A stretch of 64,000 bases of DNA from a virus. The stretch is from IMG/VR virus record IMGVR_UViG_3300045988_097913; one strand, given 5' to 3'. Of this stretch, positions 40,063 to 41,804 are shown one piece after another (within the stretch, counting starts at the first letter, position 1; the number at the start of each line of letters is the position of its first letter). A model generated the notes under the pieces. The model searched no databases. It had not been told where the DNA came from and saw only the letters and a list, made by a program, of their open reading frames with translations. The translations under genes and the position numbers were made by a program.

Positions 40063-40102
40063 ACGACCACCTCACAAAAATAGTCGTACAATTATTTTTA
40101 TG

Positions 40103-41359
40103 TCATTTAAAAATTACTATCCACGATGAACGAGCTTCTAATCTTTTTAGATTTATAATTTTAGGCGTTTTAAAACCTTTCGGCATATAAGAAAAATCGG
40201 ATTTATTACCATCTATATCCATAAGTATTGCATATCCAGTAGAAAGCCTTCCTTTTATAAAATATTCTTTACCAAAATATCTCACCTTATCAAACTTTCT
40301 GAACCCCTGAATTTTACACGTTGGAATGCGCTGCTCAGAACGAACTCCCTTAGTCTGTTGAAAATCCCCATCTGAAACACATTTCTTTTTGTATAAATTG
40401 CATCTTACGCTAAATTTATTTCCATGTGTTGCAATAACACAAGCGTCATAAAAATGCTCTTTATCTACTCCAAGTTTTAGACGATTTGCCTTTGTTATAT
40501 AACCAAAAGTTTCAATTGCTTCCGGGTAGATTCTAAATAATTGTTTACGAATACTATTCATCTGTGTAGCATATTTTAGATTCCCTTTGACCTTACCTTC
40601 TAATTTAAGACTAATTTTACCACTATGCAACGCCTTATGGCAAGTATGACAAAGTGTAATCAAATTACTTTCTTCGTCTGAACCATGTTTGCTGCGAAAC
40701 ACAATATGATGAACTTCCAGTTTACTGTCTTTATGTTTACCTTTGCAATACTGACAAGTATAATTATCTCGATTTAAAACCATAGCCTTGGTATTTTCAA
40801 ACCCATAATTTGTTCCTTTTTGGTATCCCCAATGTCTTACATTTTCATCTACAAGGCTTGGATTTTTCATAAGGTAAGTATCAAATGTTCCTGTTTCAAA
40901 GACTATAGTAGTTATAGGGAGAATAGATTTGATATATTCTATTTCTTTAACGTGGCTATGGAGTTTACTTACCATCGTGGGACTAAATCTATCCTTCTTA
41001 ATTGAATTTTTGCGATTTAGCCATCTTGCTTTTCTATAACGAGTTTTTCTGCTACGTCTATTTCTGCGGTATTTGGCCCTTTGAGTCATTTTGTCAGTAA
41101 TGTCATTTCTAACAACTACTTCCGACATATAAACTATTTCGCCATCATCGGTAGAAACGGCAGTTCCTATTGCGCCACTTCCTGTATCAACCCCAAGAGT
41201 TAAATCTTGTGTGCAATTAGGAGTCTCGTATAGAAGTTTAATTGTGAATGGACAACGCTTAACTACTTTAGCCTTACCATCTTTTAGAAGATGTTTGACT
41301 TTACCGTGCCTAGTAGTTGGCATAAGCGGTTGTCCATCAATATTCAATACATATACCAT
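40103..41359 (-). CDS. iscB: IscB RNA-guided nuclease (PLMP-RuvC-bridge helix-HNH-RuvC)
   Basis: [42 protein letters not shown] (PLMP). [11 protein letters not shown] (RuvC-I). [20 protein letters not shown] (bridge helix). IVFETG (RuvC-II). [36 protein letters not shown] (HNH). HFYDAC (RuvC-III). Confidence 0.9.
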   Translation of the reverse strand: [418 protein letters not shown]

Positions 41360-41804
41360 ACTAGACACCCATTTCGTAAAAATAACTCCATTACTTATGT
41401 AATGGTTATGCGTATTGCTATACTATTACCACATAGCTTTTCCGACCTCAACTCGACAATGATATAAAGGCTTTAGCGTATATATCACAAGGCTACTATT
41501 ACTCCAACCTAACTTAAACATATACGACAGAGCGACGGTCTGTTGCGTCAACCGAGGGTGTCATAACCTAAATATCGTAGTTATCATTTCTGGTAACTAA
41601 GTCTGGTAGGCTATTTAATGGAAACTACAAACTCTTATAGTTTGTAGATACCTACAATCATAGAACACAAAGAGCCTATAGCGTCCCACAATTGTACGAC
41701 TACAATTATAAATAATAAAGACCAGACAGGCAAGCCAAAGAACCTGTATCTCCTAACAACGGGTGATAGCAGCTTAGTATCTCTATCCTCTGGTCTTTAA
41801 TTAA
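41360..41804 (-). ncRNA. Candidate IscB omega-RNA region (extent and 5' end undefined)
   Basis: 445 nt without an ORF directly 5' of iscB. Visibly structured: perfect hairpins at 41388-41405 and 41625-41647, and a 10-bp long-range stem between 41717-41726 and 41789-41798. Confidence 0.55.

Follow-up and report, generated by a model that had tools for sequence, protein, structure and literature searches.

A left-end-less IscB/omega-RNA cassette in a gut phage and its probable part in RNA-guided homing

Why would a phage carry an RNA-guided nuclease of a transposon-borne family in a cassette with neither a transposase gene nor a transposon left end? OMEGA nucleases are understood as transposon helpers that cut again the scar left after excision by the TnpA transposase, and the only OMEGA nuclease for which true homing from one genome to another has been demonstrated is TnpB, in laboratory plasmids. 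The question is raised by a 64,000-nt stretch of viral DNA (IMG/VR record IMGVR_UViG_3300045988_097913, hereafter the window), in which an iscB gene, the omega-RNA upstream of it and a short guide form a compact block on the minus strand. By comparing this block with occupied and empty relatives (given as L-numbers where one has to be told from another), we arrived at the view that it is best explained as an IscB/omega-RNA (OMEGA) module descended from an IS200/IS605-family element and now free-standing, and that it probably serves transposase-independent, 'intronless' RNA-guided homing, or at least guide-directed cleavage of co-infecting relatives. The parts of the locus are listed below, where ORF stands for open reading frame, RBS for ribosome-binding site and TAM for target-adjacent motif.

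40063-41699, minus strand: whole mobile cassette, 1,637 nt, delimited by its breakpoints against empty loci
40103-41359 (stop codon included), minus strand: iscB coding sequence, 418 aa, from the ORF, family models and catalytic alignment
41385-41655, minus strand: omega-RNA scaffold, made up of a HEARO core (41655-41441) and, 3' of it, a conserved stretch whose last element is the hairpin 41405-41388
41656-41671, minus strand: guide segment 5'-UUUGUGUUCUAUGAUU-3', the 16 nt immediately 5' of the start of conservation in 36 loci
41672-41699, minus strand: cassette leader, 28 nt, from junction alignments, with no relation to the empty allele
40063-40102, minus strand: 'copy B', which replaces the intergenic sequence of the phage with a diverged version, from comparison with relatives after the stop codon
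40051-40072, minus strand: the carrier's own target copy AGGTGGTCGTATGATT with the TAM ATAAAT, from direct comparison with the guide
41705-41733, minus strand: sigma-70-like promoter TTGCCT-17-TATAAT, from a consensus scan, 10/12 matches

The nuclease and its omega-RNA

The ORF at 40103-41359 encodes a complete IscB. Read from a GTG, the frame covers 40103-41368 and 421 aa; the likely start is the ATG at 41359, which all homologues use, and the resulting 418-aa product agrees with the compact size given in an earlier note on this DNA. Thirty contigs are on record with exactly this protein; variants at least 99% identical to it are listed by the dozen, several of them on many contigs. In profile searches the product scored 335.1 bits against the NCBIfam equivalog model guided_IscB (NF040563), well above the cut-off of 175, and 173 and 46 bits against the Pfam models RRXRR (PF14239) and HNH (PF01844), respectively; its best solved relatives are likewise IscBs (7xht, 7utn, 8csz and others, E ~1e-43). 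The motifs from which the earlier note had called the protein a complete IscB are all present and align to the catalytic residues of OgeuIscB, which are D61, E193, H247, H340 and D343 (Kato 2022, PMC9640706). In our residue-by-residue alignment to that protein, in the 421-aa numbering, the catalytic positions are D61 of RuvC-I, E158 of RuvC-II, H220 of HNH and H305/D308 of RuvC-III, all intact and none substituted. PLMP lies at 14-17, and the HNH domain combines H220 and N235 with the CxxC...CxxC cysteines (CxxC at 205 and 240); catalytic residues, PLMP and zinc cysteines are invariant across 23 phage homologues. The architecture is therefore that of an IscB, with PLMP, a split RuvC, an arginine-rich bridge helix and an inserted HNH. 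Alignments to OgeuIscB end near residue 333, and the C-terminal ~100 aa are conserved among the homologues; a profile built from 23 phage IscBs aligns with the solved HfmIscB (9k2z_A) over profile positions 2-389 of 423.

Existing annotation gives little hint of this identity. The window IscB matches phrog_119 at 169 bits, a family that PHROGs annotates only as 'HNH endonuclease'. GenBank phages offer only distant homologues (28-40% identity), which occur in Clostridium phage c-st, a Clostridioides phage and two Staphylococcus phages; IscB-like genes of GenBank phages are annotated as HNH endonuclease or hypothetical, and no useful annotation was gained from them. Phage IscBs are, in short, systematically under-annotated.

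The omega-RNA measures about 287 nt and consists of the guide (41671-41656) followed by the scaffold (41655-~41385). The earlier note had proposed a candidate of 445 nt: an omega-RNA does lie upstream of the gene, and the two hairpins described there (41388-41405 and 41625-41647) both exist, but the length was overestimated, and 41700-41804 is phage backbone that is also found in IscB-less relatives. A covariance-model search with the published Rfam model HEARO (RF02033) gave a match to the full model (1-211) at 41655-41441, with 75.7 bits and E=2.4e-15, a score that falls narrowly short of the gathering score of 83; this model lacks the 3' part of the omega-RNA (Meers 2023, PMC10055086). Across 36 phage IscB loci, conservation begins abruptly at 41655 and extends to ~41385, and the sequences 5' of 41655 are unrelated. 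Because folding of the single scaffold sequence beats shuffled sequences only modestly (z=-1.8), we relied on covariation for its structure: an RNAalifold consensus on 28 phage loci showed compensatory changes in 52 of 66 pairs. What lies directly 5' of iscB, on the same strand, is thus a conserved and covarying structure whose 5' end is abutted by a non-conserved guide. The promoter-like site lies within phage backbone, immediately outside the 5' edge of the cassette, and occurs in empty relatives too; judging from its position, it is a candidate driver of a transcript comprising guide, omega-RNA and iscB.

The insertion site, its alleles and the limits of the cassette

The cassette takes the place of 25 nt, AACCGGTTTTAAAGAGGTGTGTTCT, that IscB-less relatives carry in an intergenic region. 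Against seven empty loci the breakpoints are identical, with backbone homology running to 41700 and resuming at ~40095, and a 9-10 nt repeat blurs the exact breakpoint. Two isogenic pairs of occupied and empty genomes, L003/L085 and L002/L189, differ only at -1637 to -2 relative to the downstream ATG, and among eight occupied copies variable sites are sparse within 41713-40062 and dense outside. At the guide end of the cassette, the leader has lost the old RBS upstream of the guide and includes one arm of a 13-nt inverted repeat. At the other end, the 40-nt, phage-like copy B supplies an RBS (GAGGTG) that, together with ATGATT at 40062-40057, starts the downstream 88-aa gene. Copy B is identical in all occupied copies and sits where canonical relatives have the transposon left end, so that after the stop codon the relatives read CGCCATTCATCCCATCACCTAAAGGTAATGGG...TATTT|ATAAA and the window reads CATAAAAATAATTGTACGACTATTTTTGTGAGGTGGTCGT.

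Repeats were also observed at these junctions. The inverted repeat is perfect over 13 nt at both cassette ends, at 40081-40093 and 41690-41702 (TAGTCGTACAATT / AATTGTACGACTA), and in L210/L211, which represent an older lineage, it matches at 12/13. Both homology breakpoints also bear a 9-nt direct repeat, ATAATTGTA. The inverted repeat may have been left behind by a fold-back or template switch from which the left-end-less cassette arose; alternatively, it may act as a functional site.

In the GenBank phage MT835481 and six IMG/VR contigs without the block, the site reads ATAATTGTAG-AACCGGTTTTAAAGAGG-TGTGTTCTATGATT-ATAAATGATTTAGC. Following a suggestion of the earlier note, we searched related phages for a guide match beside a conserved motif and found a 14-nt match next to ATAAAT: counted from the TAM, guide positions 1-14 equal the IscB-less allele TGTGTTCTATGATT|ATAAAT in 10 contigs, with a mismatch only at 15-16 (this susceptible target can also be written GGTGTGTTCTATGATT, followed by ATAAAT). 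The target spans the RBS spacer and the first codons of the conserved 88-aa gene. That ATAAAT is the TAM and that the guide is a copy of the flank was taken from canonical relatives with a left-end hairpin (L008, L009 and L034, IscB 79% identical), whose seven empty sites read AAAAAGCGAACTTATA|ATAAATAAG, an exact junction of guide-flank and ATAAAT. OgeuIscB in vitro no longer cuts when mismatches fall at positions 1-14, and it tolerates them at 15-16 (PMC9640706). The carrier's own allele (AGGTGGTCGTATGATT, also given as GGTGGTCGTATGATT-ATAAAT) departs from the guide at positions 8, 9 and 12-16, and for this reason immunity of the self copy is predicted. The DNA encoding the guide is adjoined by the scaffold and not by a TAM, and apart from the guide the window holds no further exact copy of the 14-nt match.

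Four allele classes were found at the site, with the cleavability of the gene-less ones judged from guide and TAM complementarity. Their counts among 15 IMG/VR contigs and 16 metagenome-assembly contigs were as follows.

Occupied allele: IMG/VR 2/15, metagenome assemblies 5/16
Susceptible allele: IMG/VR 6/15, metagenome assemblies 3/16
T-to-C at guide position 12: IMG/VR 3/15, metagenome assemblies 3/16
Mismatched (resistant) allele GAGGTGGTCGTATGATT: IMG/VR 4/15, metagenome assemblies 5/16

Nine IscB-less contigs thus have the carrier's mismatched allele and six have the single T-to-C at position 12 (GAGGTGCGTTCTATGATT, a variant also written GGTGCGTTCTATGATT). What is seen at this locus is hence the combination expected of a homing gene, with presence and absence at one site, a matching site near the insertion point in the gene-less allele and a substituted allele in the carrier.

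Both mismatched classes deserve a comment of their own. The IscB-less contigs L087, L088, L089, L091, L178, L182-L184 and L188 contain the GAGGTG-GTCGT-ATGATT patch of copy B within an otherwise ordinary empty region, at a site homologous to window 40051-40095. Such a resistant allele could be the natural source of copy B, or it could be a scar of abortive homing, in which case a brief episode of synthesis-dependent repair, copying from copy B the stretch bounded by the GAGGTG and ATGATT that both have in common, could have produced it. The position-12 allele, carried by L177, L179, L189 and L198-L200, is the only IscB-less allele on the backbone 99-100% identical to L002 (three of the six carriers were compared), and the T-to-C change may be an escape mutation.

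Eleven cassette-bearing sequences are known to us: the window, L002 and L003 from IMG/VR, L175, L180, L185, L186 and L190 from metagenomes, L210 and L211, a diverged lineage (P0044) at the same site that was found by protein look-up, and L212, which has a more distant IscB (89% identical) at a different site in another phage. Our detailed comparison covered eight of them (the window, the two IMG/VR contigs and the five metagenome contigs). All eight have the cassette at one site with identical junctions, on at least four backbones; cassette identity among the occupied genomes is 98-100% and drops to 80-93% within a few hundred bp on each side. The flanks of L003 are 100% identical to those of the empties L085 and L181, and the flanks of L002 are 99-100% identical to those of the empties L177, L179 and L189, the nearest flank differences in the isogenic pairs being hundreds to thousands of nt away from the cassette; the L002 and L003 backbones themselves differ by ~8-10%. 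Near-identical cassettes stand on different backbones.

The cassette also bears the marks of constraint. In the six occupied copies of full length iscB is intact, and the variable codons comprise 12 synonymous and 7 non-synonymous ones. Between the L210 lineage and the window, iscB has diverged by 8.4% (70 synonymous and 26 non-synonymous codon differences) and the scaffold by 3.7%, with 0/16 nt differences in the guide and 0/40 nt in copy B. A hand estimate from the codon counts puts the ratio of non-synonymous to synonymous substitution (dN/dS) of iscB at roughly 0.1-0.2. Comparison with the empty allele shows that nothing of the original sequence remains immediately 5' of the 14-nt match, whereas the match itself has been retained.

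Compared with its transposon relatives, the cassette is not a canonical insertion sequence (IS). A left end follows the iscB stop codon in L004-L011, L013-15, L017, L024, L025, L028, L034 and L035, and is made of a hairpin resembling the first stem of the scaffold (CCCATCACCTAAAGGTAATGGG...) and then ATAAA; after the window iscB stop codon no such hairpin was found, and 40 nt of phage-like intergenic sequence stand there instead. The right-end hairpin, on the other hand, survives as the first scaffold stem (41647-41625). In L012 and L029 a Y1 TnpA directly follows iscB (PF01797, 121 bits for the L012 protein), and a tblastn search with both TnpA proteins, whose reach was the 64-kb window, the host and the remaining ~10 kb of the phage lying outside it, returned no match better than E=1. 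Whereas the canonical L008, L009 and L034 insert cleanly at ...TTATA|ATAAAT, the isogenic pairs show that here 25 nt were replaced and a target copy was rebuilt. A left-end-bearing canonical insertion at the same site was not present among the 15 IMG/VR contigs; the metagenome scan required ATGATT immediately before the TAM and was blind to such an insertion. The earlier note had called the element non-autonomous on the grounds that the window has no TnpA, and both points hold; the label, however, understates how derived the cassette is, as it has lost the left end altogether and carries guide and immunised target copy within itself.

How the cassette would spread, and the alternatives

A plausible sequence of events can be drawn from these relations. 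The backbone promoter would transcribe the leader, the 16-nt guide, the ~270-nt scaffold and iscB; the IscB-omega-RNA complex would recognise TGTGTTCTATGATT beside the TAM ATAAAT in a co-infecting, cassette-less relative and cut there; and the break would be repaired by recombination with the cassette-bearing genome, by which 25 nt would give way to the 1.6-kb cassette, or, were repair to fail, the rival genome would be lost. The carrier would be protected twice, by the scaffold that replaces the TAM at the guide DNA and by the substitutions at positions 8, 9 and 12-16 of its functional copy, and a transposase would be unnecessary. Replacement at a fixed site on several backbones, with the predicted cut site within the replaced patch, argues for a product of break-induced gene conversion and against peel-and-paste. 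The earlier note had raised RNA-guided homing or competition as possible roles, and the comparative evidence, all of it from sequence, points the same way. As for a wider claim, we regard it as evenly balanced whether left-end-less IscB cassettes constitute distinct, recurrent phage mobile elements, that is, RNA-guided free-standing homing genes with a hard-wired guide and an immunised, function-restoring target copy that spread entirely by cleavage and repair; were this so, they would drive allele-level arms races in which related phages carry cassettes aimed at each other, as the second IscB of L088 (described below) and the window would be.

Several points weigh against homing. Transcription and cleavage are both inferred here, and promoter-like sites in this AT-rich region do not exceed the chance number in the consensus scan. 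The guide equals the old flank by descent, so that the match alone is no proof of present function. Conversion tracts are shorter than ~50 nt, so that flanking markers do not show the co-conversion known from classical homing. A cassette with homology on both sides could equally be transferred when co-infecting phages recombine in the ordinary, homologous way. The window's downstream backbone is 99-100% identical to that of L089, an IscB-less phage whose resistant allele IscB could not have cut, so at least some of the spread must have occurred by general recombination. The backbone twins of L002 carry the position-12 mismatch, which blocks cleavage by the OgeuIscB rules, so either this IscB is more tolerant or those empty genomes are escape mutants. 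Lastly, the metagenome-assembly and IMG/VR collections may overlap, and the contig counts are then not independent.

Some of these points would suit a different explanation, in which IscB is a weapon of competition or exclusion only and the cassette moves by ordinary homologous recombination and not by break-induced copying. The logic of guide, target and TAM and the resistant alleles fit killing equally well, the tracts are too short for co-conversion to be seen, and the L089 match is with an uncuttable backbone. We nevertheless consider this explanation unlikely, because the two isogenic occupied/empty pairs differ solely in the cassette and the cut site, as break repair predicts, and double-strand breaks in phage infection are normally recombinogenic, a point familiar from work on the seg and mob homing endonucleases of T4. 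Homing and weapon roles are, moreover, not mutually exclusive.

It is very unlikely that the locus is an inert relic, with a guide-target match left over from an old insertion and an iscB that is decaying or unrelated in role. Descent of the guide from the old flank, a transcription that is only deduced and the modest single-sequence fold of the scaffold (z=-1.8) would all be compatible with decay; against it stand the intact ORF of all six full-length occupied copies with its synonymous excess, the intact catalytic residues, the covarying scaffold, a guide and copy B that stayed invariant while iscB diverged by 8.4%, the retention of the 14-nt match next to entirely replaced sequence, and the sheer commonness of a cassette whose exact protein occurs on 30 contigs besides dozens of variants at least 99% identical.

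Hardly credible, and already largely refuted, is an ordinary non-autonomous IS200/IS605 (ISC) insertion mobilised by TnpA in trans, with IscB serving 'restorative' homing after excision (Meers 2023): close relatives are canonical, with a left-end hairpin and clean insertion at ...|ATAAAT, two have a Y1 TnpA after iscB, and the right-end hairpin is retained in the scaffold, but the left-end hairpin and sequence are absent here, peel-and-paste does not yield an exchange of 25 nt in which RBS and start codon are rebuilt, no TnpA lies within the 64 kb, and every cassette copy that is at least 94% identical is at one site.

Related systems, parallel cassettes and neighbouring genes

The protein and RNA belong to the known IscB/omega-RNA family, and the homing-like behaviour resembles that of the free-standing homing genes of T-even phages, with an RNA guide instead of recognition by protein. 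Altae-Tran and colleagues reportedly described, in 2021, ISC elements of the IS200/IS605 family that encode IscB together with a HEARO/omega-RNA. With ISC elements (Meers 2023, PMC10055086; structures 7xht, 7utn and 8csz) the cassette shares PLMP, split RuvC, bridge helix, HNH and a putative C-terminal domain, an omega-RNA immediately 5' of iscB on the same strand, a 16-nt guide 5' of the scaffold that derives from flanking DNA, dependence of transcription on an outside promoter (here a predicted one), and an AT-rich TAM, ATAAA; its reverse complement, TTTAT, is of the type that the same paper gives for TnpA target sites. Unlike them, it has neither left end nor TnpA, holds the guide and a 28-nt leader inside the moving unit, carries a rebuilt, guide-mismatched target that provides the gene next door with a new RBS and start codon, and has as its predicted cleavage target the allele of a rival genome instead of its own excision scar.

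The free-standing homing endonuclease genes of phage T4 (SegF, SegB, SegG and MobE; PMC13565253) also bear comparison. In both cases a nuclease gene lies between conserved phage genes, is present or absent among close relatives and coexists with resistant alleles in the population; the cut site, predicted in our case, falls within the 5' end of the neighbouring gene, some tens of bp away from the insertion, and self is told from non-self by a few substitutions in the carrier allele. The difference is that specificity would here come from a 14-16-nt RNA guide and a TAM and not from protein-DNA contacts, which makes its determinant a short, evolvable DNA segment within the cassette. A TnpB-driven, TnpA-independent 'gene drive' of IS605 was recently described in multicopy plasmids (bioRxiv 2025.02.20.638934, PMC11870625). 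There, as we would suppose for our cassette, an OMEGA nuclease cuts an element-free homologous site elsewhere and the element is copied in by recombination without TnpA; that system, however, involves TnpB and a complete IS in laboratory plasmids, as opposed to IscB in natural phage populations, in a cassette that has lost a transposon end and gained an immunised target copy. 'Transposon non-restorative homing' has been proposed in a 2026 review (PMC13565253) that calls phage-to-phage homing theoretical, and our full-text literature searches found no description of homing by a phage IscB.

Type II CRISPR-Cas9 was considered as an identity for the system and rejected, given a protein of 418 aa, the lack of a repeat array and matches to Cas9d/Cas9 that are limited to the shared RuvC and HNH segments; no CRISPR array was found within 36000-46000. 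With Cas9 the system has in common a homologous RuvC-HNH core and RNA-guided recognition with a 3' adjacent motif, and it differs in lacking REC lobe, CRISPR array and adaptation genes and in its single fixed guide, fused to a large scaffold.

The locus offers a natural, population-level case in which a role between different genomes is directly testable, because a defined guide, TAM, susceptible allele, two mismatched allele classes and isogenic plus/minus pairs are at hand. It also exhibits one route by which a transposon-borne, transposase-dependent nuclease may become a self-contained, reprogrammable selfish gene or weapon, which is relevant to the way in which systems like Cas9 came to leave transposons. 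Practical use is also conceivable, because the IscB is compact (418 aa), its TAM is a simple one of the ATAAA type and a natural set of targets is available.

Other phages harbour comparable cassettes. Those of L018, L027 and L212 are without the canonical left end and lie at or in the 5' end of a gene, with the L212 IscB directly 5' of a gene start. L036, whose IscB is 52% identical to that of the window, is also left-end-less; its guide matches three empty sites exactly (L092-L094), the final 12 nt of the target recur at its 3' end with a single mismatch (11/12), and its location is a 5' leader, with the next start ~200 nt further downstream. Downstream of iscB, a diverged repeat of the guide-proximal target was observed in L036, L018, L027 and L212, which in L018 is a duplicate of roughly 50 nt (z=6.6) and in L027 amounts to the first 9 codons of a metallophosphatase-like gene, duplicated and recoded; the empty site predicted for L027 had no match in IMG/VR. 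The window, L027 and L036 share a 7/7 TAM-proximal match that is individually not significant. We considered whether a duplicated target downstream of iscB might be a general feature, by local alignment of the 60 nt upstream of the scaffold with the 250 nt after the stop codon and by a gapless 16-mer scan; only L018 was clearly significant, and we do not claim generality.

L088 (IMGVR_UViG_3300045988_078356) has, besides an allele predicted to be resistant to the window IscB, a second left-end-less IscB (IscB2) that is 42% identical. This IscB2 is inserted exactly at the site homologous to window 32381-32402, which is empty in 16 of 17 IMG/VR relatives and occupied in one. The corresponding feature of the window, and those next to the cassette, are given here.

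32402-32387 (site 32381-32402), minus strand: protospacer for L088 IscB2, guide ATTATCCGTTTGGATT, 16/16 match, then AAGGTG
41718-41797, minus strand: skipping-rope RNA (RF02924), 43.1 bits against a gathering score of 36.7
41805-42410, minus strand: AgrB gene (PF04647, 90 bits)
42507-42638, minus strand: 43-aa ORF (MKNFVKAIAKGASCASFTFFGHYQPK...), an AgrD-like autoinducing-peptide precursor by appearance, just upstream of agrB

The window belongs to a tailed phage, as shown by tape measure, portal, TerL and NrdD genes and one intron homing endonuclease. Contigs related to this phage are 60-80 kb long and come from human gut samples, and the cassette-bearing genome is that of a gut phage of roughly 75 kb. 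The homing elements that we could verify in the window are one homing endonuclease and two group I introns: the introns (RF00028, 66 and 75 bits) stand in tandem on the minus strand at 9983-10370 and 10525-10883, and a homing-endonuclease ORF (phrog_12131, 8925-9989, minus strand) abuts the first of them. A whole-window Rfam scan at gathering thresholds returned only these two introns and missed both HEARO and the skipping-rope RNA, which were picked up only by a local scan by E-value. The skipping-rope RNA, a structured RNA classed as an orphan (Weinberg 2017, PMC5737381), is placed between agrB and the cassette, in phage backbone that IscB-less relatives keep. Close relatives of the IscB in species-representative bacterial genomes number only ~5, all on contigs of metagenome-assembled genomes from the gut. 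AgrB and the AgrD-like ORF would together make up a quorum-sensing cassette of the agr type carried by a phage, and they suggest that the host belongs to the Firmicutes.

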